Source: Candidatus Cloacimonadales bacterium
GTDB lineage: Bacteria; Cloacimonadota; Cloacimonadia; Cloacimonadales; JAIOQZ01
DNA: 64,000 nt
NCBI GenBank assembly: GCA_963662655.2
Contig: CAXXTU010000002.1
Location: forward strand, 2,592,001-2,656,000
Direction: 5' to 3'
Shown here: positions 7,702-60,585 of the stretch, in pieces
Layout: each line of letters opens with the position of its first letter
Numbering within the stretch: position 1 is the stretch's first letter
Program-made: the position numbers and the translations under genes
The notes under the pieces: generated by a model
The model's database searches: none
What the model saw: only the letters and a program-made list of their open reading frames with translations
What the model was told of the DNA's origin: nothing

Positions 7702-7816
7702 GCACCTTCGCCCGTTCTCCCCTTGCCACGTGGTGTTTCACAGCGTAGCTTCTACATCCATTTCCTTACGGAGCTGTGGTATATCCACGTGGCAAGGGGA
7801 GAACGGGCGAAGGTGC
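7702..7816 (+). repeat. Dispersed hairpin element, family H copy A (inverted relative to copies B-D)
   Basis: Perfect 32-bp inverted repeat 7702-7733/7785-7816; contains cgtggtgtt, tatatccacg and cgggcgaaggtgc, the reverse complements of the boxes in copies B-D. Confidence 0.8.
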
Positions 7817-7866
7817 GCACGAATGCCGACGTGGATATACATTCTCTCCCTCCTGTATGAGAAAAA

Positions 7867-8015
7867 CGAAATAAGCTCGATTTTTACAAAGGACCCCGCG
7901 ATGCATTGAAATGCGATTTGCGAAATTCGGACTTCAGTCGATACGAAGTAATGTAATGGCAAATCGCCTTCCAATGCATCGCATGCCCACCCACCCGTAT
8001 TGCGAGCTCATTTCG
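7867..8015. repeat. Long imperfect hairpin unrelated to family H
   Basis: Arms 7898-7921/7959-7982 match at 22 of 24 positions; outer arms 7867-7879/8003-8015 match at 12 of 13. Confidence 0.6.
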
Positions 8016-8018
8016 TGG

Positions 8019-8053
8019 AAAAGAAAACACCCCGGAAAATCCGGGGTGTTTTT
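8019..8053 (-). terminator. Terminator downstream of glnS (probably bidirectional)
   Basis: aaaacaccccgga-aaa-tccggggtgtttt with A- and T-tracts on the two sides. Confidence 0.8.
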
Positions 8054-8073
8054 GCAATGTATGACTTCGCAGT

Positions 8074-9774
8074 CTACTCGGCAGATTTTGCCAGAATCTT
8101 CGCGAAATTATCTCTCAGAGGCACCGCCCTGTTAATGACAACCTTATCGTCAGTCGTATCGGGATCAACGTAGAAGTATCCCTGGCGCAGGAATTGGAAG
8201 TGCATACCTGGCTTAGCATCCTTGAGTGACGGCTCGCATTTGGCAATCACGACGCTGAGTGAGTCCGGATTAATGATCTCATGGAAGTCACTGAACTCTG
8301 CGGGATTCGGAACGGTGAACAGGTGGTCGTAAAGCCTTATTTCAATATCGGCTGCGTGCATCGCGGAAACCCAATGCGAGGTTCCCTTCACCTTTCTTCC
8401 GTCTTCCGACCATCCACCTTTTGTTGCGGGATCGTAGGTGCAGTGAATTTCGGTGATATTACCGTCATCATCTGCCTCGTACCCGGTACATGTCACATAA
8501 TAGGCGTGTTTGAGGCGAATCTCTTTCCCGGGAGCCAGCCTGAAGAACTTCTTGGGCGGATCAATCATGAAATCTTCCCGCTCGATGTATATCTCACGAC
8601 TGAATGGCACCTTGCGTGATCCGGCTTTCTCGTCCTCGGGATTGTTCTCAGCGTCGAGCCATTCTTCCTGATCCTCGGGGTAGTTCGTGATGATCACTTT
8701 TACCGGATCCAACACTGCCATAACACGCGCGGCCCTTTTGTTGAGGTCCTCGCGGAGGCAGAAGTACAGCAAACTAATGTCGGCGGTACTGTTGCTCTTG
8801 GCGATACCGATGCGATCGCTGAAATCGCGGATCGATTCAGGCGTGAAACCCCTGCGACGCAATCCCGCTATGGTGGGCATGCGGGGATCGTCCCAGCCGT
8901 TCACGATCTTTTCCGTAACCAGCGCGAGAAGCTTGCGCTTGCTCATGATGGTGTAATTGATGTTCAGGCGGGCAAACTCGATCTGTTGCGGATGACTCGG
9001 CACCGGAAGCTGATCGAGAAACCAGTCGTACAACGGACGATGGTCTTCGAACTCGAGCGTGCAAAGCGAGTGGGTAATCTTCTCCAGAGAGTCCGACATA
9101 CAATGCGTGTAGTCGTACATCGGGTAGATACACCATTTGTCACCCGTGCGGTGGTGGTGCGCCCTGCGAATGCGGTATACAACAGGATCGCGCATGTTCA
9201 GGTTCGGAGACGCCATATCGATCTTCGCTCGCAGGGTGAGCGTTCCGTCCTCGTATTTTCCGTCTTTCATCTCCTGGAAGAGTCTCAGGCTCTCCTCGAT
9301 GGGACGGTTGCGGAACGGGCTCTCTTTGCCGGGCTCGGTAAGGGTTCCGCGAAGCTCGCGGATTTGATCGGGCGTAAGCTCATCCACGAACGCCTTTCCG
9401 TCTTTGATGAGCTGAACGGCATATTCGTAGAGCGCGTCGAAGTAGTCCGAAGCGAAATACAGCCTGTCCTCCCAATCGAATCCAAGCCAGCGGATGTCTT
9501 CAATGATCGAATCGACGTATTCCACATCCTCTTTGGTGGGATTGGTATCGTCGAAACGGAGGTTGCAGGTTCCCTTGTAGTCCCGCGCGATACCGAAATT
9601 GAGGCAGATCGATTTCGCGTGACCGATGTGAATGTAACCGTTGGGCTCCGGCGGGAAACGGGTCGCAACGCGATCACCGTTCTTGCCGGTCTCCAAGTCG
9701 GTATCTATGATGTTCCGAATGAAATTCGATTTCGATTCATCAGTTGTTTCCATATTGTTGGAGTCTTCGTTCAT
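8074..9774 (-). CDS. glnS: Glutamine--tRNA ligase
   Basis: Motifs [18 protein letters not shown] (HIGH), IYPMYDY, MSKRKL and FQFLRQGYF. Confidence 0.97.
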
Positions 9775-9780
9775 GGTACC

Positions 9781-10635
9781 TCACCAGGGAAATTTTTCAT
9801 CGATTCTGACCGATTTCACGTCCATATCGTGCGCCAAAAACAGCGGACCGTTCTTCGGCCTGAGTTCGTCCAGAATCATGCGTTTAAATCGGAAAGAGCG
9901 CGTCCTGTCAACCTCGTATGCCGAAGTTACGGACGGACGCAGATGCTCTTTATGCGGGAAGATATCGCCGCCGTAGTAAGCGAGTTCCCCTTCGCTCTCG
10001 ATTCGCACGACCTGAAATCCGTTGGAGTGTCCTCCGGCCAGAATCAGGCGAATCTCAGGCGTAAGGTTCACATCGCCGTTGACGAGCTGATATTTACCGC
10101 TTGTCTCCAGCAGCCCAAGCTGATGATCGAACTGGTAGGCTGATTCATTGAGTTCGTCAGGGTGTTTCGCCGTGCTCCATTCGATCTCCTGGATGTAGTG
10201 AATGGCATTGGGGAAGGTCAGCTCGTCACCGTTGCCAAAATCACTTACTACGCCTCCTGCATGATCGAAATGCAGATGAGTCAATATCACACCATCGATA
10301 TCCTCTCGCCTGTAGCCGACTCTCGCGAGGTTATCGATCAATGTGAATTCGGATGGCCGATATATCTTTTTCTCTTTTTCGCTGATGCGGTTCCCAAGTC
10401 CGGTATCGATCAGGAAAACCCTGCTGCCGGTATCAATAATCAGCAAGCTGAAATCCATCTGAATGCGGTGCTTCTCATCGATCGGGACCGTTCTCTCCCA
10501 GATCGCGCGCGGGAAAATTCCCATCGCAGCGCCGCCGTCCGACCAGAAATTACCTGCTGTTATCTTCTTGAGTTTTAGGCTTCCGAGTTCTTCGTGGCCT
10601 GCGTCTCCTCGGTTTTCCATCTTGATTTTCTTCAT
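9781..10635 (-). CDS. MBL-fold metallo-hydrolase (YtnP-like); start uncertain (10635 or 10620)
   Basis: Motifs THLHFDHAGG (HxHxDH), DGGAAMG, GHSNG, GGDIFP and C-terminal AHD. Confidence 0.9.
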   Translation of the reverse strand: MKKIKMENRGDAGHEELGSLKLKKITAGNFWSDGGAAMGIFPRAIWERTVPIDEKHRIQMDFSLLIIDTGSRVFLIDTGLGNRISEKEKKIYRPSEFTLIDNLARVGYRREDIDGVILTHLHFDHAGGVVSDFGNGDELTFPNAIHYIQEIEWSTAKHPDELNESAYQFDHQLGLLETSGKYQLVNGDVNLTPEIRLILAGGHSNGFQVVRIESEGELAYYGGDIFPHKEHLRPSVTSAYEVDRTRSFRFKRMILDELRPKNGPLFLAHDMDVKSVRIDEKFPW

Positions 10636-11302
10636 TTCTCCTGTTTTCCTTTGGAGATGAATCAGTTACGGCCTTCTCGCCGCTATCCGGCATTACAACG
10701 ACCCTCTTCTTCTCGCCCTGGCCTATCGTCATCGTACGTAAGTCGTTATCTTTCTCGATCAACCGATGTACCACTTTTCTGTCAGCGGCACGCATCGGAT
10801 CGAAGGTGAAGCTCTTCTTGCGTTGTTTCACCTTGTCGGCCACGTCGCGGATTTTTCCGATCAACTGTTTCTCGTGATTCCCTCGGTAGCCTTCGCAATC
10901 CACCACAACCTGCACATCGTTGATGCCCTGGTTGAGAAGCATGCGATTCACCAGATGCTGGATGCTGTTCAGGAGACGTCCATCCTTGCCGATGACGAAT
11001 CCCTTCTCCTTCACACCGACAAGATCGATATAGATCGTGTCGTTCTTCTTCTCGGAAGTCACTTGCTGATATTCCACGTCCATGTGCTTCAGGAGACCCT
11101 CGATGAAGATACGGACATCGCCATTGCCTTGTTGCAAGTTGAAATTGATCACGACAGGTTTCGCGCCGAAAAGGTTGAAAAAGCCGTTCGATCCCTTGTC
11201 TACAATGTCGTATGTGAATTGATTGCGTTTTAAGTTGAATTCCTTCATGAAGCCGGTTACGACTTCGAATTCCGATTTACCTTCTCGTTTGATTATTTTC
11301 AT
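10550..11302 (-). CDS. jag: Jag/KhpB/EloR RNA-binding protein (Jag_N, KH, R3H domains)
   Basis: KH motif VIGKDGRLLNSIQ and R3H motif DRKVVH; located directly after yidC. Confidence 0.88.
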   Translation of the reverse strand: MKIIKREGKSEFEVVTGFMKEFNLKRNQFTYDIVDKGSNGFFNLFGAKPVVINFNLQQGNGDVRIFIEGLLKHMDVEYQQVTSEKKNDTIYIDLVGVKEKGFVIGKDGRLLNSIQHLVNRMLLNQGINDVQVVVDCEGYRGNHEKQLIGKIRDVADKVKQRKKSFTFDPMRAADRKVVHRLIEKDNDLRTMTIGQGEKKRVVVMPDSGEKAVTDSSPKENRRNEENQDGKPRRRRPRRTRKPKTQEDNSR

Positions 11303-11344
11303 TGTAAAAAACCTCGGTTAAAATTACATATCCGTTGATGGAAG

Positions 11345-12985
11345 CTACTTACTGCGCTTCCGCATGATGTACATCTGAATGATCGAAAAGATATTGAAGA
11401 TCATCCAGTACAGAACGAGTCCAGACGATAAACCGCTGAATATCCAAACCATCATCACCGGCATCATATATAACATCATCTTTTGTGTTTGCGCCGCCGC
11501 TTTCTGCTGATCGTCCATGTTGTCAGAAACCGGTGGAGGAGTCATCATCTTCTGCTGAACGAACATGAAAACGCCCATCAGTACGGGAAGAATGTAGTAC
11601 GGATCCGGCGCGGAAAGGTCCTTCAGCCAGAACATGAAATGGGCCTGGCGAAGCTCGACCGAATAACGCAACGCTGGATAGAGCGCGAAGAAGATCGGCA
11701 TCTGAAGAAGCAGCGGCAAGCACCCGCCCAGGGGGCTCACACCGTGCTCCTTGTAGAGCTTCTGCATCTCTGCGTTCATCTGCTTGGGATCGCCTTTGTA
11801 CTTCTGCTTGAGCTCCTGCATCATGGGCTGAACCTTCTGCATCTTCTGTCCGGATTCCAGACTCTTGTGGGTCAGCGGGTAAACCACGACCTTGATGATG
11901 AAGGCGAAGATAATGATATCGACACCGTAGTTCGGAATCATCTTGTAGAGCTGCCCAAGCAGCCACAGGAAGAACTTGCTGAGGAACTGGAGCCACTTCG
12001 ATCCGATTTCGGCGAAATTCTCCAGACCGCTGCCGAATTCGTCTTCGAGCATCTTCGCGTTCAGCGGCCCTATGAAGATCGAGTAGTGGTGGTTGATCTC
12101 CCAGGTGTGGCTTGCATTGTCTACGTGCAAGGACATCGCGGGGCTATCGTCGACATCGTTGCCATGAAGCTGATTGACCTTCACGAGGCTGCTCGGGATC
12201 ACGGCGATACCGAAATACTTGGTCCGGACGCCGGCCCAATCGACCATGCCGTTGAGTGTTTGCGGCTCTTTTTGCAGCTTGGAGAGCGTTAGCTTCTCCA
12301 GGTCGTTGTCGATCTGCGCGACGATCTTATAGTCGGTTTTCTTGTGCTTTACGTACTCTTCCGTATCGCGGAGGCCGGATTCGAGCGCGATGCTGTAATC
12401 CTCGATATCCCTGCCCGTATTGACGATGAAATCCATTTCGAGACGGTAGTCCTTCGTCAGGACGAATCGCTTCTCGACCAGTCTCTTGCCGTTGTCGTCC
12501 GCAAGATAGAAAACGATGCCCGGTTTCCCTTCTTCGTTCAGCTTCTCATACTGGAAAAACATGTCGGAGACATCCACGTCTCCCACGCCGGTTTCGACGG
12601 GAAAACCCTCGAATTCCAGAACGCGGCGATCTTCTGGAATGAGTTGAACCGGCTTTGTCTTGTCGATCGATGAAAATTCCTTCAAGACGACCTTTGTGAT
12701 GCTTGCGCCCATGGTTGAAAACGTGAGGGCCAGCTTGTCATCTTCAAGCGTAATCAGCTCTTCTTCGATGGAGGCGTCCACCGAAAGGCTTGCCGGGGCG
12801 TTGCCTTTTAATGAAAGGGAGTCCGGCTTACTTAGCGTTGCGTCTTGAGATGTTGATACGGATTGCTCGGTGACAAGTTGTTGCTCGGGTAGCTCGGATG
12901 TTTTTTTGGGCGCCCAGATGAATTGGCTGAAAAACCAATATACGATGAAAATCAGTACGATAGCGATTACTGTTCGCTTATCCAA
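11345..12985 (-). CDS. yidC: Membrane protein insertase YidC (TTG start)
   Basis: Motif GGCLPLLLQMPIFFALY, WLKDLSAPDPYYILP, large periplasmic domain; RBS AGGAGG. Confidence 0.96.
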   Translation of the reverse strand: MDKRTVIAIVLIFIVYWFFSQFIWAPKKTSELPEQQLVTEQSVSTSQDATLSKPDSLSLKGNAPASLSVDASIEEELITLEDDKLALTFSTMGASITKVVLKEFSSIDKTKPVQLIPEDRRVLEFEGFPVETGVGDVDVSDMFFQYEKLNEEGKPGIVFYLADDNGKRLVEKRFVLTKDYRLEMDFIVNTGRDIEDYSIALESGLRDTEEYVKHKKTDYKIVAQIDNDLEKLTLSKLQKEPQTLNGMVDWAGVRTKYFGIAVIPSSLVKVNQLHGNDVDDSPAMSLHVDNASHTWEINHHYSIFIGPLNAKMLEDEFGSGLENFAEIGSKWLQFLSKFFLWLLGQLYKMIPNYGVDIIIFAFIIKVVVYPLTHKSLESGQKMQKVQPMMQELKQKYKGDPKQMNAEMQKLYKEHGVSPLGGCLPLLLQMPIFFALYPALRYSVELRQAHFMFWLKDLSAPDPYYILPVLMGVFMFVQQKMMTPPPVSDNMDDQQKAAAQTQKMMLYMMPVMMVWIFSGLSSGLVLYWMIFNIFSIIQMYIMRKRSK

Positions 12986-12997
12986 AGTTCCTCCTGA

Positions 12998-13216
12998 TCA
13001 TGGCAGAGGGTCGTGCCCTCCTGGATGAAACGGATGACACTTGAGTATCCGTTTTATAGACAGGAGCAATGCCTTCGGAAACGGGTATTTCTGAAATGCT
13101 TGCATAGCATAGACGCTGCAGGTTGGCGTAAAACGGCACGACGGAGGAAGATACGGAGAGATCAGCTTGCGATACGCGGTGATCGCCAATAGAGCGAACC
13201 GATTGAACAATCGCAT
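12998..13216 (-). CDS. yidD: Membrane protein insertion efficiency factor YidD
   Basis: Motifs [11 protein letters not shown] and [17 protein letters not shown]; start placed at the ATG at 13216. Confidence 0.93.
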
Positions 13217-13220
13217 AATG

Positions 13221-13562
13221 CTATTCTCTGCCTGCGGGAACGGATTCAAGACGAGAAAAAAAACTCTTCAGGACGGACGAGAATTCATCCCAGTCCAGTT
13301 CGGCTGCGCCAATGCGCGCGATGATGAGAACTTTCAAAGGCATTTCCCAGTATTGCCTGTGTTCCCGTAAAAAAGCCCTGATCCTCCGTTTGACTTTGTT
13401 GCGCTTTACTGCCTTCCCGACCCTTTTACCTGCAACGATCCCGACATAGAGGTGCGGCGCGGTCCCGTTGTAAACAAGAAAAGTGAACCGTTTTCCGGGT
13501 AACCGCCGATGGTCGGAGTAAACCTCATTAAAATCATTCCGTTTCCGAATCACTCCATACAT
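13221..13562 (-). CDS. rnpA: Ribonuclease P protein component
   Basis: RNR-type motif [17 protein letters not shown]; lies between rpmH and yidD. Confidence 0.93.
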
Positions 13563-13571
13563 TCAAAGTCA

Positions 13572-13706
13572 TTAGACAGTAAGTCTTTTGCGGCCTTTAA
13601 GCCTGCGCGCGGCGAGAACTTTACGTCCGCCCTTGGTTGCCATACGGGCACGAAAACCATGAACACGTTTTCTTCTCGTGTTATGTGGCTGATACGTTCT
13701 TTTCAT
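13572..13706 (-). CDS. rpmH: 50S ribosomal protein L34 (absent from the ORF track)
   Basis: Manual translation [44 protein letters not shown] (44 aa); RBS AAGGAG. Confidence 0.97.
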
Positions 13707-13958
13707 TCTAAAATCTCCTTCAAAATTCGCTTCCGGTTCACTTTATACACATATCTCTGTGTCGAGTTTGAAAAAAATTACAGCCGCTTTTGTGTCAAGC
13801 ATTTAATCGCGAAATCCATTGTTTGTGTCTTGATGATTCACCTGTGCATTCTCATCGTAAGTTGCGCTTGCATCGTAAGAACTGTTTTATTCTTGACACA
13901 TAATGAATTATCTTCATGAATATTTTTCGGTTACCCAACCTATTCCAAGGGAGGTTCT

Positions 13959-16262: not shown

Positions 16263-16457
16263 GATTAACAGTCACTGAATAAACTCTTTGGCAAAGCAAA
16301 GAAACGTGGCAACGTGTCCTCGTTTCCTGTCCAACCACATTCAACTGTTGGATCGCGGTGAAGACGCAGTGAGATTATCGTCAGGGAGACAAAATTACTG
16401 GACAAGCGCTACTTTTTATCCAAAAAAGGCGAGACATCAGATGATTGGAGATTCGAC

Positions 16458-19511: not shown

Positions 19512-19632
19512 TTTCAGCTTTCACGTAGTGAAAACAAATTATATCGGAAGCGCTTTTGCTGGCGTTACGACTATGTGCAGCAAAACGTAAGCTTAGCGTT
19601 ACGATTTCATGCAAGAAGTCATCAGACTGTTG

Positions 19633-27105: not shown

Positions 27106-27210
27106 GGTTCGTTTGTTACCCCGTGGGCGAGAGTGAACCCGTTTTTCGGTAGTTATCGTGAAGGGGCTGCCTCCGGCGGAAGGCCTTTGGCGATTCTGTT
27201 TGCCGTTCTC

Positions 27211-27332
27211 GGCATCTTCGCCCGATCGCACCTCCAACGTGGATATAACACGATTCCGTTGGGAGAAAAGGAACAACTCCATCGTGTAACACCACGTCTC
27301 CGTTGGCGATCAAGCGAATCTACTCTCGAACT
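27211..27332 (-). repeat. Dispersed hairpin element, family H copy B
   Basis: ggcatcttcgcccgatc...cgtggatataacacg (27238-27252)...cgtgtaacaccacg (27283-27296)...gatcaagcgaatct. Confidence 0.8.
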
Positions 27333-27394
27333 ACCTCCGGCGCTAAAGACGCCCCGGCAAGTCGAAGCAACCGGGTCATCACCAAAGCATACGG

Positions 27395-33135: not shown

Positions 33136-33151
33136 ACACAGCTTCGATAAC

Positions 33152-33279
33152 GTTCGCGGCATCTTCGCCCGATCTGTCGCTCCATCGTGGATATAACACG
33201 TCAAGTGACTATCGAGCGAGATGATTAGACGTGTAACACCACGCCTTCGCGACAGATCGAACGAATCTGCTCACGAACT
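33152..33279 (-). repeat. Dispersed hairpin element, family H copy C
   Basis: ggcatcttcgcccgatctgtcgc...cgtggatataacacg...cgtgtaacaccacg...gcgacagatcgaacgaatctgc. Confidence 0.85.
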
Positions 33280-33369
33280 TTCCACGAACGGATTTCCATA
33301 TTCAACTTTTATTTAATAATTCTTGACTTTGAACTACCCGAGTACTGTTCTCTGGTTATGGAGGACGCA

Positions 33370-37395: not shown

Positions 37396-38742
37396 GGCAC
37401 TGTTGCATATTAAGTGGGTGAATGGGTATTCAGATATCCGCAACATTGCAGAACCTTCAATCTGAAGTATGAGAAGTCCTTGTATCCATACGCTCTCTTT
37501 ATAATGGTTCGAATGACGTTGTTAACCGCTTCTGCCTTGGCATTCGTGATTCTATGCTTGAACCAGCTCAACACAATATGCAATCTCTTCATAATCGTTC
37601 TTGCAAGTGCCTTCAGTGGCTCGAAGACGGTTTTCTGAATAACTCTGCACCACTCTTCAATCATCGGCTTCGCTTCTTCTTGCGTAATATCGTCTTCGAA
37701 AATCGATAGTAAATCTTCTTTGAGCAAATAGGCTTCGTAAAGGGGATGATTTAGCGTCTCCAGTTTCTTGAGTCGGGCTTGATGGTTTTCTTTGTGATTG
37801 TGTTTTCTGGTCAAAACCAACCACCGGTCGTGTTTCTTGCTCTGACGCAACTTGTCAGATTCAAAATCTCTCTGAAGTTCTCGTCGTACTTCTTCCACTT
37901 TTCTGTTGACCAGGCGGCTGAAATGGAAACGATCAAATACGATCATATCGGCACTCCAACACTCGGAAACAGCGCCGATATATGAACCACTGAAATCCAT
38001 TGTTACGGTATCAATCCAGCGGAGTCGTCGTTCGTATTTTCGAAACAACTCCTTCGCACTTTCTTTCGATTTGCCCATTGTCAGGTCGATCACACGCCCG
38101 TCCTCATGGTTTGTGATAACCGTTGCATACTTATGCCTTCGCTTATAACCAATCTCGTCAATTGCAATCTGATCGACATTCGGAACTCGTCCTCTATAAC
38201 CCTTTTCCAACTTGGATAACTCAATTTTGTCGATTCGATAAATCGTACTCCGATCCACACCGAATATCCGTGCTACAGAAGCATTGTCTGAACGAAGCGT
38301 GAACTGGAGAACCTTATTGCCGAAGTCTTTAGAGTGTCGATTGAGACCCTCGGCAATATCCTGTTGTTCAGTTTTCACTCCACACTGAGCGCAGTTGATC
38401 CGGCGAAGCGTCAGCACAAGTACTACGGGACGACAGGATATGGATGCATGAAGAATTTTGCGGACTCGATGATCATAAACTGTTCCCACAATACCGCATG
38501 TAGGACAACGTGGCTCATCTTCCTTTCGAACATGGACTTCAATGCATGGATAAGTTTGATACGTACCTTCGATTATCTGGTCGGCAGAATAACCTTGCAA
38601 AGCCAACAACGTTTTACAGACTTGTTTTCTGAGAGGATCATTCATCTCTATCTCCTTGTTGTGGTGATTAGGAGATTGTACGAGATCGGGTGATTCCTCT
38701 CTATCTTTTTTCCGACTTACCCACTAAGTTTGCAACAGTGCC
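37396..38742 (-). mobile_element. ISL3-family insertion sequence, 1347 bp
   Basis: Terminal IRs ggcactgttgcatattaagtgggt and acccactaagtttgcaacagtgcc (GG ends); single transposase whose stop codon lies inside the IR; lower GC than the flanks. Confidence 0.92.
37410..38645 (-). CDS. ISL3-family transposase
   Basis: CPTCG and CAQCG zinc finger; IAIDE, VTMDFS, IVFDRFH, TNAKAEAVNNVI and KRAYGY. Confidence 0.93.
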   Translation of the reverse strand: MNDPLRKQVCKTLLALQGYSADQIIEGTYQTYPCIEVHVRKEDEPRCPTCGIVGTVYDHRVRKILHASISCRPVVLVLTLRRINCAQCGVKTEQQDIAEGLNRHSKDFGNKVLQFTLRSDNASVARIFGVDRSTIYRIDKIELSKLEKGYRGRVPNVDQIAIDEIGYKRRHKYATVITNHEDGRVIDLTMGKSKESAKELFRKYERRLRWIDTVTMDFSGSYIGAVSECWSADMIVFDRFHFSRLVNRKVEEVRRELQRDFESDKLRQSKKHDRWLVLTRKHNHKENHQARLKKLETLNHPLYEAYLLKEDLLSIFEDDITQEEAKPMIEEWCRVIQKTVFEPLKALARTIMKRLHIVLSWFKHRITNAKAEAVNNVIRTIIKRAYGYKDFSYFRLKVLQCCGYLNTHSPT

Positions 38743-38847
38743 TAATTTTATGCATGATTGTATCCTGTCTGGCATTTTTGCGAATTAATGGGAATGTTGG
38801 AATGAATGTCAATAAGAATTAATCGCGCCTAATGAGAATGTATTGCT

Positions 38848-52439: not shown

Positions 52440-52460
52440 GAAAGACAGAACACTTGACCT

Positions 52461-52880
52461 ATGGGATTATATCGAATTTTAGCTATTGATTTCGGTAATT
52501 CGAAAATCGGATTCGCACTTACGGACCCGATGCGGATTATCTCCAGGCCTTATTACACGCTCCGGTACGATACGGAAGACATCGCGCTGGACTGGATACG
52601 AGAGACAATCCAGAGAGAACGTGTCGGACGCATCGTGATGGGGCTGCCCATCGACATGGAAGGCAAGGAAACGCATCAATCGTCGCTGACCCGGCAATTC
52701 GCGGAGAGGCTGAAATCCAGCGTGGAGGTCCCCGTCGATTTCCAGGACGAGCGTTTCACCAGTGAAGAGGCCAACGAAGAAATCAAAAAGATGGGCAAGG
52801 ACCCGATAAACGGACGGAAAATCATTGATCAAGTCGCGGCGTCCATTATCCTGAAGAATTATCTGGAATCCTATCGATGA
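52461..52880 (+). CDS. ruvX: YqgF/RuvX nuclease
   Basis: Motifs ILAIDFG, IVMGLP, QDERFTS and IDQVAASIIL. Confidence 0.93.
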   Translation: MGLYRILAIDFGNSKIGFALTDPMRIISRPYYTLRYDTEDIALDWIRETIQRERVGRIVMGLPIDMEGKETHQSSLTRQFAERLKSSVEVPVDFQDERFTSEEANEEIKKMGKDPINGRKIIDQVAASIILKNYLESYR

Positions 52881-53869
52881 AACGGGTGCTTCCCATAGCG
52901 ATTTTGCTCGTGATCGCGGTGTTTATCGCGCTTGACGTGAAAATGCTGCTCGAGCCGGTTTATGTACGGGACACAATCATCGACGTCTCCCAGGGCGAAA
53001 CGGCAAAATCCATCTCCAAAAAACTATTCGATAGCGGAATTATACGAAGCAGGTTCTTCTTCGAGATGTTCGCGCGATACAAGGGCATCGACCGCAAGCT
53101 GAGTCGCGGGAAGTACCTCTTCAGCGGGAAGATCACCATCGGCGAAGCCCTGAAAAGACTGCATGCGGCAAAGGTTATCCTGCGAAAAGTGACCATCCCC
53201 GAGGGTATGACCGCCCGTCGAACCGCCCACGTTCTCGCGGACAACGGTTTTGGTGACTACCAGCGTTTCATGTACCTGATGCAGGACTCGACGTTCATCA
53301 AACAAGTTACAGGCTTCTCCCTCCCTTCGCTGGAAGGATTTCTTTACCCCGAAACCTACCATTTCCCTGAGGGCGTCAAAGAGGAATTCATTCTCCGGCA
53401 CATCGTCGATCAATTCTGGAAAATGACGGCAAACACCTTCGAGAACACGAGAGAACTCCACGATTTCTATGATACCATGATCCTTGCTTCCATCGTGGAG
53501 CGCGAAGCGCGCAAGGAAGACGAAAAGCCTTTCATCGCCGACGTCTACCTCAACCGTATCGAGAAGGGGATGTTGCTCCAGGCGGATCCGACCATCGCAT
53601 ACGCACTGGAAAACGCCGGCATTCGACGGTCGCGGATTCTTTACAAGGACCTCCGCTTCGATTCACCCTATAACACTTACCGGAATCAGGGACTGCCCCC
53701 CACGCCCGTATGCAATCCCACGATCAGCGCGATCGAGGCGGTTCTGGCTCCGCAGGATACGAACTATTTATTCTTCTTCGCCGACGGCACCGGAGGACAC
53801 ATCTTCTCGGAAACCTACCGGCAGCATTCGTCACGTTTGCGCAAACTGAGGAACGACAATGGGCGATAG
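52877..53869 (+). CDS. mltG: Endolytic transglycosylase MltG
   Basis: Motifs VTIPEG, LEGFLYPETY, LASIVEREA, LQADPT and SPYNTY...GLPPTP. Confidence 0.95.
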   Translation: MKRVLPIAILLVIAVFIALDVKMLLEPVYVRDTIIDVSQGETAKSISKKLFDSGIIRSRFFFEMFARYKGIDRKLSRGKYLFSGKITIGEALKRLHAAKVILRKVTIPEGMTARRTAHVLADNGFGDYQRFMYLMQDSTFIKQVTGFSLPSLEGFLYPETYHFPEGVKEEFILRHIVDQFWKMTANTFENTRELHDFYDTMILASIVEREARKEDEKPFIADVYLNRIEKGMLLQADPTIAYALENAGIRRSRILYKDLRFDSPYNTYRNQGLPPTPVCNPTISAIEAVLAPQDTNYLFFFADGTGGHIFSETYRQHSSRLRKLRNDNGR

Positions 53870-55055
53870 GATTCTTCTCGATCTGGCCATTATCATCTTC
53901 TGCTCCAAGATCATGGAAGCGCTTTCGCGCAGGCTCAAGCAGCCGCCGGTCATCGGCATGCTTCTGCTTGGCGTGATTCTGGGGCCGAGTTTCTTCAACC
54001 TCGTGGAATCGGATGTCATCATCCAGTGGCTTGCCAAGCTGGGCGTGCTCTTCCTGCTGTTCGAGGCCGGTCTCGAGACCAATCTCAAGCAGATTCGCCA
54101 GGACTCGAAGCAGGCGCTGCTACCCGCCTTGGGCGGAATCACCGTACCGATGCTCCTTGGATTCGGGCTCTCGATGCTTTTCAACAAGGGCGTAATGCAC
54201 AGCCTGACCATCGGCGTGATCTTCACGGCCACAAGCGTGAGCGTGAGTGTGATGACCCTGATCGATCTCGGCAAGCTGAAGGGTATCGAGGGGCGTTGCA
54301 TCGTGAACGCGGCGATCATCGACGACGTGGTGGGCATTCTTCTGGTCACGTTCCTATTCGGGATGAGCCTGGGGCACAGCGGCGGTTTGCACATGCCTGG
54401 CGTCGCGTTCCTGCACTCGATCGGGAAGATTGTCGGATTCTTCGCGGTGATTTTCCTATTCGGCTTCTTCGTTCTCAAGCCGTTCTTCCTCAACATCAAG
54501 AAGTTTTATCTGGAGACGGCGGTTCTCTCGCTGACCATCTCGCTGATCTTCGTCTATGCCTGGCTGGCGGAACAGGCGGAAATCGCCGCGATTACCGGCG
54601 CATATTTCGCCGGACTTTTCGTGGGACAGACGAAGTATAAACACTCGATTCAGGAGGATATCTCCACCGTTGGGAAATCGTTCTTCGTGGATGTGTTCTT
54701 CGTGAATATCGGCTTGGGAATTCACCTTTTCAAGCTCAGGACCGATCCGATTTTCCTGCTTCTCTTTGTGTTCCTGGCGATGGCGGGGAAATTCGTGGGC
54801 AGCTCCATCGGGGCAAGATTCAGCAGTTTCGACTGGCTGCGTTCCATGCGTATCGGTTTCGGGATGATCCCTCGTGGCGAGGTAGCACTGATCATCGCAA
54901 ATATGGCGGTGGAAAAGCAATTGATTTCCACCGGGGAGCTCTCTTCGACGATCATGCTGGTTATCATCAGCGCGTTTGTGACACCGATACTGCTGAAATA
55001 CAGCTATTCGAGGCTTCAACGCAAATCTTTCAACGGAGGCGGCAATGTGGAATGA
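53859..55055 (+). CDS. Cation:proton antiporter (CPA2, NapA-like)
   Basis: Motifs FEAGLET, ATSVSVS, AAIIDD and GMIPRGEVALI. Confidence 0.93.
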   Translation: MGDRILLDLAIIIFCSKIMEALSRRLKQPPVIGMLLLGVILGPSFFNLVESDVIIQWLAKLGVLFLLFEAGLETNLKQIRQDSKQALLPALGGITVPMLLGFGLSMLFNKGVMHSLTIGVIFTATSVSVSVMTLIDLGKLKGIEGRCIVNAAIIDDVVGILLVTFLFGMSLGHSGGLHMPGVAFLHSIGKIVGFFAVIFLFGFFVLKPFFLNIKKFYLETAVLSLTISLIFVYAWLAEQAEIAAITGAYFAGLFVGQTKYKHSIQEDISTVGKSFFVDVFFVNIGLGIHLFKLRTDPIFLLLFVFLAMAGKFVGSSIGARFSSFDWLRSMRIGFGMIPRGEVALIIANMAVEKQLISTGELSSTIMLVIISAFVTPILLKYSYSRLQRKSFNGGGNVE

Positions 55056-55866
55056 TTGCATCAACGAAAATCTGATCATCGTCAATCCGAAGGTCAAAGA
55101 CAAGAACGACCTCTTCGAGAAGATGGTAAATCACGTTTATAATCAGGATATCATCCGGGATCACAAATCATTTCTCAAGGCGATCCACAGCAGGGAGGAA
55201 GCTGCCAACACCGAATTGATTCCGGAGGTGGCCCTGCCGCATGCGCGGGACGAAAGCTGCGAAAAGGTATTCCTCAGCATCATCGTTCTCAAGGACGGGA
55301 TCGACTACGGAAATCCGGAGATGGGACCGGCGAAGATCATCTTCTTCTTCGGCGCGCCGCCGGAAGAGAACAGGATTTACCTGCAACTGCTGGCGAAATC
55401 GTCGAGACTTCTGAAGAGCGATAAATTCAAGAACGAGCTTCTGCAGGCAAAAACCCCTGCCGACATCCTCGCGGTGATCAGTCGCCACGAAGAGCAGGAA
55501 AAGCGGCAGGAAGACGCCGCTAAATATGCACTGACCATCGTTCTGCACAACCCAGATTTCCTGGATGGTTTGCTCTCGACGCTCGTTGAACTTGGTATAA
55601 CAAATGCATCCATTATTGACAGTATTTCCATGGCTCGCAAACTTGCCTACGAGATGCCCGTTTTTGCGGGACTCAGTTATATGTCGCCGGGAAAGGACCA
55701 AAAATCTACGGTCGTTCAGTGCCTGGTGAGCGAGCAAAACGTAGCCCGCAGGCTATACGGATTGCTCCGGGAATTCAAAATTGATATGGACAAACCCGGG
55801 ACAGGCTACCTGTATCTGAACAGGCTGGACGCCTTTTTCGGAAATCCTGAAGAATTGGTGGAATAG
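55045..55866 (+). CDS. PTS EIIA (Fru/Ntr-type) domain fused to a PII-like domain
   Basis: REEAANT...VALPHAR (phospho-His motif); C-terminal LTIVLHN...LVELGITNASIIDS...PGTG. Confidence 0.8.
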   Translation: MWNDCINENLIIVNPKVKDKNDLFEKMVNHVYNQDIIRDHKSFLKAIHSREEAANTELIPEVALPHARDESCEKVFLSIIVLKDGIDYGNPEMGPAKIIFFFGAPPEENRIYLQLLAKSSRLLKSDKFKNELLQAKTPADILAVISRHEEQEKRQEDAAKYALTIVLHNPDFLDGLLSTLVELGITNASIIDSISMARKLAYEMPVFAGLSYMSPGKDQKSTVVQCLVSEQNVARRLYGLLREFKIDMDKPGTGYLYLNRLDAFFGNPEELVE

Positions 55867-56435
55867 TGAAGATTTTTATTATGCGGCATGGAGATTCGAC
55901 CCATCTGGTGGGCGATTTCCAACAGAAGACAACCTGGAAAGAGTTTCGAAAACAACTTCCCTCATGGGACAGTGCGCAGCTCACTGAGCTTGGCATCAGG
56001 CAGGTGAGGGAGGCTGAGAAAAAATGGCGCGGGAAATTCAGGAAGATTTTCCACAGTCCGTTGCCCCGCGCAAAGGACACTGCGTCCTTGATGAATCCCG
56101 AGGGGAAGATACCTTCGGAGGCATGGCCGGAGCTCCGTGAAATCGATGCGGCCTCGCTACGTCTTCCGGGATGGATTCAGATATCGCTGTATAATTGGTT
56201 TGTCTACACGTTCTTCAATTCGATCTTCAATTTCGGGATTTTCAAGATCATGCACAACGCTGCTTGCATCATGAAGAGGGCGGCCGGATACAACGAACCG
56301 GTCGTGCTTGTTTCTCACAAGGCAAGGATACTGGCATTGCTCCTGTGGGTGAGAATTCACTGGAAATGGCGCGTGGTGAGTATCGATACGGATCCCGCCG
56401 GCGTAACCGTAGTGGAATACAAATCGAAGAAATAG
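55866..56435 (+). CDS. Histidine phosphatase superfamily protein
   Basis: Motifs IMRHG, HSPLPRAKDTA, LREID and VLVSH. Confidence 0.8.
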   Translation: MKIFIMRHGDSTHLVGDFQQKTTWKEFRKQLPSWDSAQLTELGIRQVREAEKKWRGKFRKIFHSPLPRAKDTASLMNPEGKIPSEAWPELREIDAASLRLPGWIQISLYNWFVYTFFNSIFNFGIFKIMHNAACIMKRAAGYNEPVVLVSHKARILALLLWVRIHWKWRVVSIDTDPAGVTVVEYKSKK

Positions 56436-56439
56436 CCTT

Positions 56440-57177
56440 CTAGCGGCCTTCTACGTGGAGGATTCGCGTTGATCTCTTGAGCGTTCTGAGAACGATGTAG
56501 ACTACTGCCGCTGCGATCAGTGCGATGATCCACCCCTTCGAGAGTACAAGCTTGTGAACGTGGATCAGATTGTACAACACTTCGACAATACAGAACGAGA
56601 CTACCATACCGAGAAGCCCCGAGTATTCCCTTTTCAGTACGTTTCGCATCGAGAAGGTGAGCTTGGAGGTCTTCCAGTTTTTGCATCGCGGGTAAAATGC
56701 AGGGGTGAAGCGAGACCACTCCGCGTATGCCTTGCCGAATTTCTCGGACAGGAATTCCTCTTCCGCCAGCATGATACGCTCGTAATAGAGGGCGTAGGTC
56801 ACGCAGAAGAAAATGATGAACCACACGTGTTGCGTATAGAGGATAACGCCGAACCACATGAGGAAATTGCCCAGATAGAGCGGGTGACGGATCTGCGAGT
56901 AAATCCCGGTCGTGTTGAGTTCGTCCGCGATCTGTTTATGCGTGTTTCTGCCGGAGGTTCTTCTGGGAACCTGGCCGATGGTGATTATGCGAATCCCAAA
57001 GCCCACTACTGCAACGAAAAGACAGAAACCGTTGTAGATATGGTGATAGAGAGGGTATGGGGTCAAGGGTCTGGTGGGAAGTAGTGACAGAACGATGAAG
57101 ATGAGCAGAATGAGCGGCAGGTAGCTCCTGTGACGGAAGAGCCACTGTCCTTGCGCGTGAAGTTCCTTGGATAGCAT
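56440..57177 (-). CDS. ICMT/PEMT-family membrane methyltransferase, LmtA-like
   Basis: Motifs TTGIYSQIRHPLYLGN and YYERIMLAEEEFL; N-terminus QGQWLFRHRSYLP. Confidence 0.82.
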   Translation of the reverse strand: MLSKELHAQGQWLFRHRSYLPLILLIFIVLSLLPTRPLTPYPLYHHIYNGFCLFVAVVGFGIRIITIGQVPRRTSGRNTHKQIADELNTTGIYSQIRHPLYLGNFLMWFGVILYTQHVWFIIFFCVTYALYYERIMLAEEEFLSEKFGKAYAEWSRFTPAFYPRCKNWKTSKLTFSMRNVLKREYSGLLGMVVSFCIVEVLYNLIHVHKLVLSKGWIIALIAAAVVYIVLRTLKRSTRILHVEGR

Positions 57178-57761
57178 TATTTCCCCTTGTTGTTCGAATA
57201 ATGAACAAACATATCATTTGATTCTTTTTTTAGGGAGGGTCTTGTTTGGGCAAGATTTTTTTTGAAGATCAATGAGAAATAATATTTATACAAAATAATA
57301 TTATAGTGTATGATATTATCATGCAACAAGAAACGTTTGCAAGCAAAAGCGGATTTAAGCCTTGAAGTGAATTTAACTCAGATATTGATTTGCAATTAAT
57401 CTTCATTATTATCCGTTCAGGATGCGGTTTATTGCTCGCGAAATTAACTGTGAAAATGAATGAGATTTACGAAGTATGCGCTAAATGAAACTTAGTCAAT
57501 GAGCTACGCACGATATAGACTGGATTGGCGGAGTGATAAATGTCTCGTTTTGTAAGTATATTGTTAGCAGCGGATTATATCTTTGTGGCAACAGAAAAAA
57601 AAATTGACAGCATGGTTGCGAATTCTAAATTAATGAAGCTATGGGAATAGTGTGTGTATCTCAATGCATTTGAGTGCGTTGCTGTTGATGTTGAATGTAG
57701 AAGCTAAAAATAACAGTGAATCATAATAAGAAAATCAAATGATCTAATCAAGGAGAAAGGA

Positions 57762-60386
57762 ATGAAACAAAAGGGATTCGTTCTCGTATTTATCTTGCTC
57801 TGCAGCGTCGTTGGCATGTTTGCGGACTATACTGTTGATTTCGAAGCAGAATCGAAGCCTAGCTACTTAATTGGCACCGTCGCTCTCAATGGAATCGATT
57901 GGAGTCTCAATAATTGCTTGATCGGCACTCTTGCGAGCGACAAGAAGAATGGTACTAAGTCTGCTCGTGTCAAGACCGGCGGGGATATGACGATGCTGGC
58001 AAACAAGACAGGTGGACTTGGGACAATTACATTGCAATATGCAAAATATGGTACAGATACAGTAGCACCAACCCTTCGCGTTGAGTACAGCACTAATGAC
58101 GGTACAGACTGGACACAAGCTGGGACCGACTTCGATGCGAATGCACAAGCATCCCTTGCGGAATGGTCGGCAGAAGTAAATGTTGCCGGAGACGTGCGAA
58201 TTCGCATTCTGGCTGTATCTGGAACAAGCAACAAGCGCGCGAATATCGACGACATCGTCATGACGGATTTTGCTTCTTCTACTGAAACGATCACAACTAT
58301 GGATGTTGGGTTTCCTCCGTTCATCCCGGGTTCAACAGGAGACGTAACATTCTTTGGTGCAGGAACATTTCCTGCTGGTGCGATTTTCACGGCGCAGTTA
58401 TCCGATGAAAATGGCGATTTTAGCAACCCTACAGATATTGGTACCTATACGCTCACCGCTGAGACGACCAATCCTTTGCAAACTTTTGATATCACGATTC
58501 CCGAAACGGCAGTTGGCGGAACCGCCTATGAAGTTCGCGTGGTCTGCGACAATCCTGCTGTAATCGGTAGCCCATACGGTCCATTCACCATCAACGGTGT
58601 AAGCATCTCTCCGGCAGATGATCAACATTTGATTGTCGGTCAGATGATTACTCCCATTACCGGGACAATTGTTGGGGGGCCTTTGGACTACGGCTGGTAT
58701 GCGTCGGAAGTTAGCGGTGGACCATACATGGAAACAGGCATCGATGGTTATGTACTCTCGGGAACCCCTGGAACAGCGGGAACCATTTATGTTGTGTTCG
58801 GAGCTACCTTTATAGGTGGTTTATTATATAGCAATGAAGTGATGATTGAAGTGACGGAAGGACCTTCCGTGCCTTACCTCGAAGATTTCACGATCTTCCC
58901 GCCGGCCGGATGGACAAACAATGGCAACTGGTATTCAAGCAATACAAGCTATGCAGGTAGTGTCGCGCCGGAAGCTCGCATTGTTTATACGAGTTACGCA
59001 GTGGGAGATGAATTGGTATCCTGTCCGATCAACACGACCGGTTATTCGACTCTCGATGTTAGCTGGTGCCAGCAAGTTTACAGTTATAGCGGAGGCGTGG
59101 GGAGCTACCAACTCGACGTTCTCACCTCAACCGATGGATTGGAATGGAGCAACACCATTTGGTCATACACCTATATTAACGACTTGAACAATGATAACAT
59201 GAACCCTGTCGTGACGATTGGAGCAGGCGATGGTGTTGGAAGTTCAACACTCTATTTAAAGTTCCGGTTTACATCCATGGATGACAACAGACTTTCTGCG
59301 TGGAATATCGACGATTTTGTCGTGATGGAAACCCTCGCACAGGATGACACCCAGGCCGTCACAACCGGCGATCCGATGATCGATTTCGATTCACCGAGTA
59401 CCGGTCTCGCTATCCAGTTCTCCGGTGTGACTGTAGAAGGCAATGTAACGGTTCGTTTCTACAATCATGGGCCGATCAGCACGGATACCATCTCCGATGA
59501 AAACGTTGCCGATTACCGCTGGTATATCGATCAGGACAACGCCTTCGATTTCTCCGGTGGAGAAGCATGGTTGGTGTTCTATCTCGATCATATTCCGAAC
59601 CACGGAATTTCCGATCCGAACAATGTGAATGTATGGCATCGTGAAAGTGAATCCGAACCCTTCTCCATGATCGATCCTGCCAATGTAACCTACGATTCCG
59701 ATCTGAACGCCATTATCGTTATCGTATCGGAATTCAGTGAATTTGTGTTCACAAGCAATGAAGAAACCCTGCCGGTCGAGCTCTCCGGTTTCCATGGAAC
59801 TTACGCAGCAGCAGGCTTCGTTACCCTCCAGTGGAACACGCAGTCAGAAAGCGGAATGCTTGGCTATCGCGTACTTCGTAGCGAAACAGGCGATCTCGGC
59901 GATGCAATACAGATGAACACAAACCTGATTCAGGCAAACAACCTCTCAGAAGAGCAAGTCTACCAGTATCAGGATAACGATATCGAAATCGTTGACGAAA
60001 AATCTTACAGCTATTGGCTGGAAGCAATCGAATTGAATGGCACATCCAAGATGTTCGGTCCTATCAACGTGACCATCAACGAAGAAGAGGAAGAAGAAGC
60101 ACCTGTTTATACAACAGCTCTGGATCAGAATTCTCCGAACCCATTCAATCCTTCGACGACAATCAACTTCTCGATCGCTGAAGAAGGCATGGTATCTGTG
60201 AAGATTTACAATGCTCGCGGTCAGCTTGTGAAGACGCTGGTCAACGAAGTCCTGCCGGAAGGCAACTATCCTCTTACATGGCATGGTAATGACAATAACG
60301 GAAATCCATGCGGTAGCGGTGTTTACTTCTACAAGATGGAAACCGATAACAATAAGTTCATCAAGAAGATGCTGATGCTGAAATAG
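57762..60386 (+). CDS. Secreted multi-domain protein with CTD
   Basis: Signal peptide; N-terminal domain shared with the nuclease at 16458; LPVELSGF module; NSPNPFNP CTD. Confidence 0.85.
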   Translation: MKQKGFVLVFILLCSVVGMFADYTVDFEAESKPSYLIGTVALNGIDWSLNNCLIGTLASDKKNGTKSARVKTGGDMTMLANKTGGLGTITLQYAKYGTDTVAPTLRVEYSTNDGTDWTQAGTDFDANAQASLAEWSAEVNVAGDVRIRILAVSGTSNKRANIDDIVMTDFASSTETITTMDVGFPPFIPGSTGDVTFFGAGTFPAGAIFTAQLSDENGDFSNPTDIGTYTLTAETTNPLQTFDITIPETAVGGTAYEVRVVCDNPAVIGSPYGPFTINGVSISPADDQHLIVGQMITPITGTIVGGPLDYGWYASEVSGGPYMETGIDGYVLSGTPGTAGTIYVVFGATFIGGLLYSNEVMIEVTEGPSVPYLEDFTIFPPAGWTNNGNWYSSNTSYAGSVAPEARIVYTSYAVGDELVSCPINTTGYSTLDVSWCQQVYSYSGGVGSYQLDVLTSTDGLEWSNTIWSYTYINDLNNDNMNPVVTIGAGDGVGSSTLYLKFRFTSMDDNRLSAWNIDDFVVMETLAQDDTQAVTTGDPMIDFDSPSTGLAIQFSGVTVEGNVTVRFYNHGPISTDTISDENVADYRWYIDQDNAFDFSGGEAWLVFYLDHIPNHGISDPNNVNVWHRESESEPFSMIDPANVTYDSDLNAIIVIVSEFSEFVFTSNEETLPVELSGFHGTYAAAGFVTLQWNTQSESGMLGYRVLRSETGDLGDAIQMNTNLIQANNLSEEQVYQYQDNDIEIVDEKSYSYWLEAIELNGTSKMFGPINVTINEEEEEEAPVYTTALDQNSPNPFNPSTTINFSIAEEGMVSVKIYNARGQLVKTLVNEVLPEGNYPLTWHGNDNNGNPCGSGVYFYKMETDNNKFIKKMLMLK

Positions 60387-60413
60387 TTTCAGCGCTATCT
60401 GATAACGATATTA

Positions 60414-60445
60414 GGCGGGAGAGTGAAAGCTCTCCCGTTTTTTTT
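60414..60445 (+). terminator. Rho-independent terminator
   Basis: ggcgggagag-tgaaag-ctctcccgtt followed by a T-tract. Confidence 0.85.
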
Positions 60446-60461
60446 GCAAATTGCTTACCGA

Positions 60462-60585
60462 CGAGGCATCTTCGCCCGATGTCCCTTTTTATCGGGGATA
60501 TACCGCGCCTTGGAAACTACCGGACACGCGATGAAAAGGCGCGAAACACCCCGTCGAAAAGGGACATCGAACGAATCTGCTCTCG
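60462..60585 (-). repeat. Dispersed hairpin element, family H copy D
   Basis: ggcatcttcgcccgatgtccct...cggggatataccgcg...cgcgaaacaccccg...agggacatcgaacgaatctgc. Confidence 0.85.

Follow-up and report, generated by a model that had tools for sequence, protein, structure and literature searches.

Hairpin repeats of the REP/REPIN type, insertion sequences of the IS200/IS605 family, integron attC sites and the longer repeats bcr1 and ERIC are the described systems closest to the element reported here. IS200/IS605 elements insert into the lagging-strand template (PMC5027513, PMC3971601), and of 30 sedentary integrons 25 have their attC bottom strands on the leading template (PMC5371416). The in vivo copying of long hairpin repeats, among them REPINs, bcr1 and ERIC, has yet to be explained. 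Here we describe a hairpin repeat of about 135 nt, as compared with 21-65 nt for REP hairpins, whose orientation mostly follows replication and whose internal segments seem to have been exchanged, and in places flipped, among copies.

A genus-restricted family of hairpin repeats

The window, a stretch of 64,000 nt from a Candidatus Cloacimonadales genome (contig CAXXTU010000002.1, positions 2,592,001 to 2,656,000), had been predicted to hold four intergenic copies of a dispersed hairpin element. Both the sequence and a covariance model place copies A to D where they had been predicted (Table 1). The model, built partly from these four copies and run over the window with filters off, recovered all four and no fifth locus above E 0.25. 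Folding z-scores were -14 for copy A, -2.6/-2.8 for B, -3.7/-4.7 for C and -5.9/-6.9 for D. Copy B is 91% like a copy at C2:2708787 and copy C 94% like one at C2:2275644; both B and C were verified in contigs from the source sample, which contain no informative joint.

Table 1. Window coordinates of the four repeat copies, the parts of copy C and neighbouring hairpins
Feature	Position	Strand	Remarks
Copy A	7691..7828	-	outer stem perfect, 5/4 bubble kept; between convergent rpsA-like and glnS-like genes
Copy B	27200..27333	+	covariance-model bounds; convergent gap after NuoM/MrpD-like gene
Copy C	33148..33280	+	covariance-model bounds; directly after thioesterase gene
Copy D	60455..60590	+	behind terminator-like hairpin, before tricorn-type protease gene
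Copy C, left outer box	33158..33173	+	from sequence; pairs with 33256-33270
Copy C, left core strand (X)	33186..33200	+	stem, 5-nt loop, start of head stem
Copy C, head	33196..33234	+	apical stem-loop, 39 nt, exchangeable module
Copy C, right core strand (Y)	33230..33243	+	head-stem end, 4-nt loop, stem
Copy C, right outer box, bulged T and foot stem	33256..33277	+	
Terminator-like hairpin directly beside copy A	7665..7690	+	context, outside repeat
Terminator-like hairpin between upstream gene and copy D	60413..60440	+	context

The four loci stand, but the family is far larger than the four copies first seen: the source genome (G000) carries 143, none of which lies within a called gene. Three relatives of the same genus (G001-G003) carry at least 32-59 copies per genome. 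Judged by sequence searches, the repeat is restricted to its genus (g1) among the genomes searched. Covariance models applied to 150 sampled genomes of the phylum, with 22 candidates scored per genome, gave matches in this genus only and in 0/4 other genomes of the family, and an exact pattern matched 0/37 genomes of other genera. A pattern search returned 26 metagenome matches and one viral match, none carrying the outer boxes; blastn against plasmids, phages and E. coli gave no match, and no description of the repeat was found in the mostly open-access literature searched.

Anatomy, pairing and probable exchange of modules

A canonical parse takes in 111 of the 143 copies. Inspection of these copies reveals a central bubble that reads ATATA on one side and AACA on the other, each in 110/111, together with a bulged T at the foot in 98/111. 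The compensatory stems and the 5/4 bubble of the four window copies are as the original prediction described them, and several of its finer statements hold locally rather than throughout the genome. Box spacings of 28/27/28/28 nt and 12-nt right spacers are correct for the four copies, but spacing is not fixed genome-wide, where spacers are 12/12 in 52/111 copies and range from 10 to 13. The apex, given as 30-40 nt, measures 39-43 nt between the inner boxes in the four copies and 18-309 nt across the genome. Outer boxes had been assigned to every copy; copy A lacks them and has a perfectly palindromic outer stem, and the right box of copy B is a variant. The asymmetry called invariant is kept in nearly all canonical copies, but loop variants and a swapped order fall outside the canonical parse.

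Covariation was assessed by MI-APC and pair counts. Among the 30 top-scoring column pairs (of 4560), 27 are predicted base pairs, with relatedness among copies only partly corrected for. Pairing and covariation lend good support to the proposal that what is conserved is structure and geometry rather than sequence, as in a single strand that folds, and the swapped-order bubble described below strengthens it. A double-stranded dyad bound by a transcription factor was considered and rejected: each half covaries with the opposite arm and not within its own dyad. Not every covarying pair need be under selection, since copying from one arm to the other can be seen in copy A and in the middle stems, which are perfect in 19/111 copies, all 19 differing from one another. 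The outer-box pairing of copy C contains conserved tandem T.C and C.A mismatches on the + strand. Seen from the better-folding strand, these fixed mismatches become tandem G.A and G.U pairs, and G.U is also the pair that sporadic changes favour.

The foot, the middle stem and the head each vary on their own. Head and middle stem are essentially uncorrelated (Mantel rho 0.05), whereas left and right arms vary together (0.57), and the native partner arm is worse than the median in 1/111 copies only. Either strand of the central bubble may come first, uncomplemented, and the swapped order is found in an amplified subfamily. Internal deletions between repeated core motifs are also seen. No copy reaches 95% identity to its nearest neighbour (median 83%), and of the 35 copy pairs that are at least 85% identical, 32 have no flank in common, which shows that the repeat spread without its flanking sequence.

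Orientation relative to replication

In G000, 103 of 129 singlets lie on the locally leading strand (91/107 for canonical singlets), against a background in which only 1519 of 2650 genes are leading. The bias persists where transcription is symmetric, with 36/49 copies in convergent gaps and 9/9 in divergent gaps. In G001, 30 of 32 distinct loci lie on the G-rich strand, one lies against it and one is ambiguous. Two IS families and a doublet repeat of G000 show no bias (7/11, 5/9 and 8/16), a second hairpin repeat is biased as well (19/22), and a third is unbiased. The other 14 of the 143 copies stand in head-to-head pairs, the arrangement of all seven close pairs, and one such pair has been duplicated as a unit. 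The better-folding strand is placed on the leading template and the weaker strand on the lagging-strand template.

This placement would also follow if spread had been unbiased and host hairpin processing had since deleted or converted copies in which the lagging-strand template holds the stronger hairpin, producing both the bias and the swaps. Arm-to-arm copying, the internal deletions and the bias of the second hairpin repeat are consistent with such processing. We nevertheless regard it as rather unlikely, since the two strands differ little in fold energy as DNA (mean -36 vs -40 kcal/mol), decay is no greater among lagging copies (scores 88.9 vs 90.6, p 0.82), the third hairpin repeat is unbiased, and neither the 7/7 head-to-head pairs nor the first spread is explained.

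A structured RNA, one of the three candidates originally put forward, would place the better-folding strand in transcript 3' ends as a stabiliser or RNase III-type site, selected after an old spread. The tandem G.A and G.U pairs and the sporadic changes toward G.U suit an RNA, 60/134 loci lie in convergent gaps versus 187/1340 background gaps, and ERIC-type repeats affect mRNA stability (PMC3184786). The orientation, however, tracks replication in divergent and convergent gaps alike, which this candidate leaves unexplained, and the better-folding strand is sense in only 18/53 tandem gaps. A terminator-like site separates gene from element in 22/94 and 24/70 cases, there is no Rfam match, and an RNA role provides no means of spread. 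We therefore judge it unlikely.

Genomic positions and rearrangement

The positions are partly ancestral, with 30/108 gene ends in common with G000 versus 11/114 controls. Gaps carrying the element are syntenic in 7/54 cases compared with 27/57 controls, and at four non-syntenic loci the flanks on either side each lie next to G000 copies. The repeat is also a marker of rearrangement breakpoints within its genus. It is found preferentially in convergent gaps, where synteny is rare in any case (1/8 controls). Of 11 syntenic loci, seven lack the element in G000; three of these seven were aligned and are too diverged for the ends to be placed. Orthologous gene ends of copies B and C in G001/G002 carry no element, but synteny breaks there, and no clean empty site was found among the loci compared with the relatives. 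We found no sign of target duplication: the longest direct repeat is 3.85 with a copy's own flanks and 3.87 with shuffled flanks, and TA stands on both sides of only 8/111 copies. The 5' flank shows a weak motif, with no single target tetranucleotide.

Reshuffled modules and broken synteny raise the alternative that the folded core is an attC- or CTX-attP-type recombination site, at which heads would be swapped by exchange across both arms, and single-strand exchange would lead to chromosomal rearrangement. Its architecture resembles that of a folded attC site (PMC5027507), head and middle stem are independent while arms vary together, and the core occurs in both orders. The synteny deficit, with four loci flanked by sequences beside G000 copies, and a better-folding strand on the leading template, like attC bottom strands, accord with it too. 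Against it, attC boxes RYYYAAC / GTTRRRY occur in 0/111 copies on either strand, integron integrase (TIGR02249) exceeds the cut-off in 0/4 genomes, G001 has only one further match beyond the XerC/XerD-like pair, and a dif-like site at C2:796604 bears no resemblance to the core arms. Single-strand exchange, moreover, predicts unmatched stems, yet partner arms are almost always well matched, and the convergent-gap preference weakens the synteny argument. Copy A lies between housekeeping genes and no cargo was found; a cargo or cassette role is rejected. Recombination at the folded core is quite unlikely, and of the attC-like candidate in the original prediction only the architecture survives.

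Candidate movers and the preferred explanation

The genome richest in copies, G000, has no Y1 gene. G001-G003 have 13 Y1 matches in total, and no element lies within 1.5 kb of these 13 loci, several of which are flanked by other repeats. The HUH/REP-type candidate is the best fit of the three originally offered, but not through gene linkage. The Rfam motif Acido-Lenti-1 flanks one relative's Y1 gene (L221) and stands just 3' of 14/29 G002 and 7/28 G003 copies, always on the same strand. G000 keeps an orphan inverted-doublet repeat (19 doublets), whose persistence makes loss of a RAYT from this genome plausible.

Other movers give no link. Neither IS91 nor, in the four genomes, TnpB was found (IS91 over cut-off), and with no arm near Y1 genes the repeat shares no ends with a tnpA/tnpB element. 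IS110 occurs in G002 only, at 10 loci without an element arm nearby, and neither the multi-copy ISL3 nor another multi-copy element, which is IS3-like, has ends like those of the repeat. By eye, no transposase is evident between close pairs of copies. Rfam yields no gathering-score match in the window and only weak generic hairpin matches on 18 loci with copies.

Some group II introns insert in a fork-linked manner. Retro-mobilisation of an RNA, through reverse splicing or reverse transcription at the fork aided by a group II intron-type reverse transcriptase, would match the replication-linked orientation and the lack of target duplication. No reverse transcriptase is common to the genus, however (G001 has none and G000 a single interrupted match), Rfam gives no group II domain match, and we consider this route very improbable.

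The most probable account, which we hold tentatively, is that folded single-stranded DNA at the replication fork was the form in which the repeat spread, with an HUH (Y1, RAYT-like) transposase, since lost from G000, probably acting on it in trans. The outer arms would set the orientation, since both core orders share it, and insertion would be into the lagging-strand template. Copies would later have traded modules, and one arm would have been copied over the other, probably while hairpins were being repaired, and recombination between copies would contribute to genome rearrangement. The absence of Y1 from G000, the lack of any copy near the relatives' 13 Y1 loci, the near-absence of the REP foot GT[AG]G/GGAG and a length twice the REP size range count against this account, as do the failure to find a clean empty site and the partly ancestral positions, which would also fit a host role. 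An unlikely reading is a self-spreading recombination site of a new kind, whose outer arms would be read by a mover outside the families searched (Y1, IntI, IS91, IS110, TnpB, RT) and whose central bubble would be a cut-and-rejoin point for folded strands across both arms. Heads would then swap, the core could flip and the chromosome would be reshuffled between co-oriented copies, with replication polarity kept.

Comparison with known systems

The element had not been recognised as a named family, and membership tests for REP, attC, ERIC/MITE, bcr1 and Rfam fail. In the comparisons below, bcr1 is taken from secondary papers. The architecture of attC sites (PMC5027507, PMC5371416) recurs in the repeat: a stem, an asymmetric unpaired spacer, a second stem and a variable terminal structure, with strand-biased folding and the better-folding strand on the leading template. 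The bulged T, however, is at the foot, whereas the attC extrahelical base lies above the spacer, and the repeat is dispersed rather than one per gene in arrays, with neither IntI nor cargo. IS200/IS605 elements (IS608, ISDra2; PMC5027513, PMC3971601) share replication-tied orientation, no target duplication, a hairpin in which a T bulges out and mismatches are fixed, and a weak 5' flank motif. They differ in having separate left- and right-end hairpins, TnpA (absent from G000), TnpB (absent from four genomes) and a single target tetranucleotide.

Among long repeats, bcr1 of the Bacillus cereus group and ERIC (PMC3184786, PMC6542083) are likewise lineage-specific, at 127-155 nt and up to 130 copies with the mover unknown, and bcr1 shows compensatory changes. 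In contrast to the repeat, bcr1 folds as a cruciform and carries direct repeats of 5 bp, and ERIC has TA flanks.

The likeness to REP/REPIN sequences (PMC6006769, PMC3337134) is broadest. The repeat is a multi-copy, intergenic, imperfect palindrome, lineage-restricted and of REPIN size, whose variable parts keep pairing, and it forms inverted doublets, tandem arrays and, in two relatives, mosaics with true REPs. It differs in being one long hairpin with arms unlike REPs by eye, in its strong replichore bias and in its exchangeable, flippable core; the GT[AG]G/GGAG foot occurs in 1/111 copies on the consensus strand and 4/111 on the other, and no copy adjoins a tnpA-REP gene. Without an enzyme the family remains another lineage-specific repeat. 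Its 143 copies, in a single genome that is nearly closed, combine replication polarity, module boundaries and a two-way core, and they yield sharp predictions open to test: the strand that is bound, the position of the cut, and whether folded DNA is where exchange happens. The repeat is best read as a lineage-specific, REP/REPIN-like non-autonomous element with an unusual internal anatomy.

Distribution of the hairpin repeat

The four hairpin copies of the original prediction are present in the window as described, fold much more strongly than shuffled sequence (z -2.6 to -14) and are the sole copies returned within the 64 kb by a covariance-model search. Their layout needed revision: copy A lacks the outer boxes assigned to all four, its outer stem being perfected instead, and the segment between the boxes, given as an apex of 30-40 nt, measures 39-43 nt in the window copies. 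Box spacing, described as constant, ranges genome-wide from 10 to 13 nt and is 12/12 in 52/111 copies.

A profile search of the whole 3.8-Mb genome (G000) places the repeat at 134 loci, or 143 once a second core type is added. No locus overlaps a called gene (2887 genes, our own ORF calling), and convergent gaps hold 60/134 loci versus 187/1340 background gaps. Three same-genus relatives (G001-G003) also hold the repeat, with no fewer than 32 distinct loci in G001 and no fewer than 33 and 59 in the other two, counted with opposite-strand duplicates removed from the 150 candidates scored in each genome. Four further genomes from the same family gave no match, nor did other genera in a 150-genome sample of the phylum; searches of metagenomes, viruses, plasmids, phages and E. 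coli were negative too, and the proposed Rfam comparison returned no matching family.

Locations of the hairpin copies and other features
Feature	Location	Detail
Copy A	window 7691-7828 (-)	
Copy B	window 27200-27333	
Copy C	window 33148-33280	
Copy D	window 60455-60590	
dif-like site	G000 C2:796604	near GC-skew maximum at 808815
GC-skew flips	window ~10000-70000 (C2 2.60-2.70 Mb)	several, in and just past window
Second biased hairpin repeat	G000 C1:22856 + 36 others	37 loci, 34 intergenic
Amplified head unit (L008)	G000 C2:1736705	~74-nt unit, tandem within one copy
Inserted hairpin (L256-L258)	G003:C4	~40 nt, in 5-nt core loop of three copies
Acido-Lenti-1 arrays (L221)	G003:C3:1335134-1338463	flank Y1 transposase gene
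GC-rich doublet repeat	G000 C1:133582 + 37 other loci	19 inverted doublets
Reverse-transcriptase match (L007)	G000 C2:979909-983454	stop splits into 148 + 358 aa frames
ISL3-family element	window 37396-38743	411-aa transposase, 24-bp inverted repeats
CRISPR array	G000 from C2:2317656	16 matched repeats

Structure and covariation

The base of the hairpin is a foot of 5-6 bp with a bulged T in 98/111 copies. The outer stem above it carries tandem mismatches of both the T.C and the C.A type, and is followed by a variable stem of 10-13 nt, one of 5 bp, the 5/4 bubble and a further stem of 7-8 bp. On top sits a variable head, which measures ~40, 63-69 or 92-96 nt or forms a tandem array; heads of the longest class (92-96 nt, 22 copies) include a unit of their own. 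Compensatory pairing, first claimed from the window copies, is borne out by MI-APC ranking of 4560 column pairs in an alignment anchored on boxes only: of the 30 highest-ranked, 27 belong to the predicted set of 38 base pairs (effective n ~23). In a 28-sequence, four-genome alignment with several foot columns misaligned, two-sided changes occupy 82 cells versus 36 in shuffles (0/500), and the number of pairs with such a change is reached by 26/500 shuffles. The claimed strand bias of folding also stands, the strand opposite to the consensus strand folding better in 102/107 copies as DNA and 106/107 as RNA. No target duplication was found at the repeat, and the 5' flank motif is weak (TTAC in 17/111 G000 copies; ATGG/GATG types in relatives).

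Orientation with replication

GC skew and the dif-like site place the G000 terminus near C2:0.80 Mb. The consensus strand is the locally leading strand in 96/122 full copies and, with pairs set aside, in 103/129 singlets. This strand serves as the lagging-strand template. In G001, 30/32 loci lie on the G-rich strand, as judged from twenty 15-kb samples. Among G000 controls, the leading strand holds 1519/2650 genes, 7/11 ISL3 elements, 5/9 copies of a second IS and 8/16 of the GC-rich doublet repeat; another hairpin repeat is likewise biased (19/22). The idea that the element is a 3'-end RNA has on its side the excess in convergent gaps, and is set against a replication bias kept both there (36/49) and in divergent gaps (9/9); we regard it as quite unlikely. 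Pairs less than 200 nt apart are head-to-head in 7/7 cases, one pair being duplicated as a unit. The skew flips around the window suggest that the origin lies in this part of the genome or that DNA has been inverted locally; searching for DnaA motifs gave no match, and gidA sits on contig C1.

We tentatively favor, with confidence just short of even, spread of the repeat as a single strand at the fork, where an HUH enzyme acting in trans would mobilize the folded hairpin. Such spread would account for the orientation, the absent duplication, the fixed mismatches and the inverted pairs, and agrees with the behavior of IS608 and ISDra2 (PMC5027513, PMC3971601). Against it, the enzyme was not found in G000 and the better-folding strand lies on the other template.

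Probable modular exchange and a reversed core

No copy has a neighbor at 95% identity, the median for closest neighbors being 83%. Variation is coupled between left and right arms (Mantel rho 0.57) and nearly independent between head and middle stem (0.05), foot and stem (0.04), and foot and head (0.06). Stems 94-97% similar carry unrelated heads and the converse is also seen. Even so, nearest relatives are mostly related along their whole length (where heads are 90% similar, the median identity of the stems is 82%), so module exchange is frequent, not total. Mismatched partner arms are rare: judged on the better-folding strand, the native partner falls below the median in 1/111 copies. The 19/111 perfect middle stems, each different, point to arm-to-arm copying. 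Host hairpin processing (PMC4245961) may explain these symmetric swaps and could operate together with HUH spread; as the account of the repeat itself it is unlikely.

The most unusual feature is reversal of the left (X) and right (Y) core strands, with their 5-nt and 4-nt loops. The Y-X order occurs beside X-Y with sense unchanged and strands not complemented, and thus cannot be produced by plain inversion of double-stranded DNA. This form has been amplified, with about 12 copies in G000 (one of 13 so typed was an error), 6/27 and 5/29 of the loci examined in G001 and G002, and 15/19 G003 stretches chosen for short or odd length. Its core folds to an identical stem-bubble-stem architecture in the opposite direction, and Y-X copies of G001 and G003, when oriented by their outer arms, show no departure from the strand pattern. 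A single origin via a collapsed tandem dimer, then inheritance, is possible; even in that case the folded core would have to be functional both ways round.

Positions and candidate movers

Among 35 copy pairs of at least 85% identity, 32 lack a common flank, which indicates that the hairpin spreads alone; two share a 3' flank and one is the duplicated doublet. Of 85 loci in the relatives, 11 are syntenic in G000, four with the element and seven without, and one gap common to two genomes holds it in opposite orientations. With loci not independent across the three relatives and control gaps drawn from G001 alone, element-bearing gaps are syntenic in 7/54 cases versus 27/57 controls (tandem gaps only, 6/24 versus 20/37), and gene ends at element gaps adjoin a G000 copy in 30/108 versus 11/114.

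No Y1 (HUH transposase) gene was found in G000, and the check for flanking Y1 genes was negative in the relatives, where 0/13 Y1 loci have a copy within 1.5 kb; several carry their own repeats. In G003 (L218) and G001 (L219) a 137-aa Y1 gene, followed by its own palindromes, has xerC on one side and on the other a gene that by eye is DinB-like; it is absent from the G000 xerC locus. TnpB was not found in the four genomes, IS91 gave nothing over cut-off, IS110 is present in G002 only, and the ends of two abundant G000 IS differ from the repeat. The ISL3-family element has ~13 copies in the genome, three near hairpin copies. A folded recombination site (PMC5027507, PMC5371416) would suit the folded core, and no IntI was found in the four genomes; we consider it decidedly unlikely. 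Retro-mobility is highly improbable: no reverse transcriptase common to the genus was found, and the sole G000 match has no group II intron match nearby.

Relation to known elements

The ties of the repeat to REP elements are indirect. The motif Acido-Lenti-1, an Rfam "sRNA" that behaves as a REP, follows 21/57 G002/G003 hairpin copies on the same strand; its matches number ~65 in each of these genomes, many as inverted pairs, with two weak ones in G001 and none in G000. Other small hairpins are inserted into the repeat, and G000 keeps the GC-rich doublet as an orphan, REPIN-like and free of strand bias in a Y1-less genome.

No description of the repeat was found in the literature searched, mostly open-access papers (including PMC3184786, PMC6542083, PMC6006769, PMC3337134 and bioRxiv 10.64898/2026.10.21.760802). 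It works like REPINs or IS200/IS605-type elements and resembles attC in look, yet for each of these families it fails a defining test. The hairpin repeat is a real, apparently undescribed variant of dispersed hairpin repeats.
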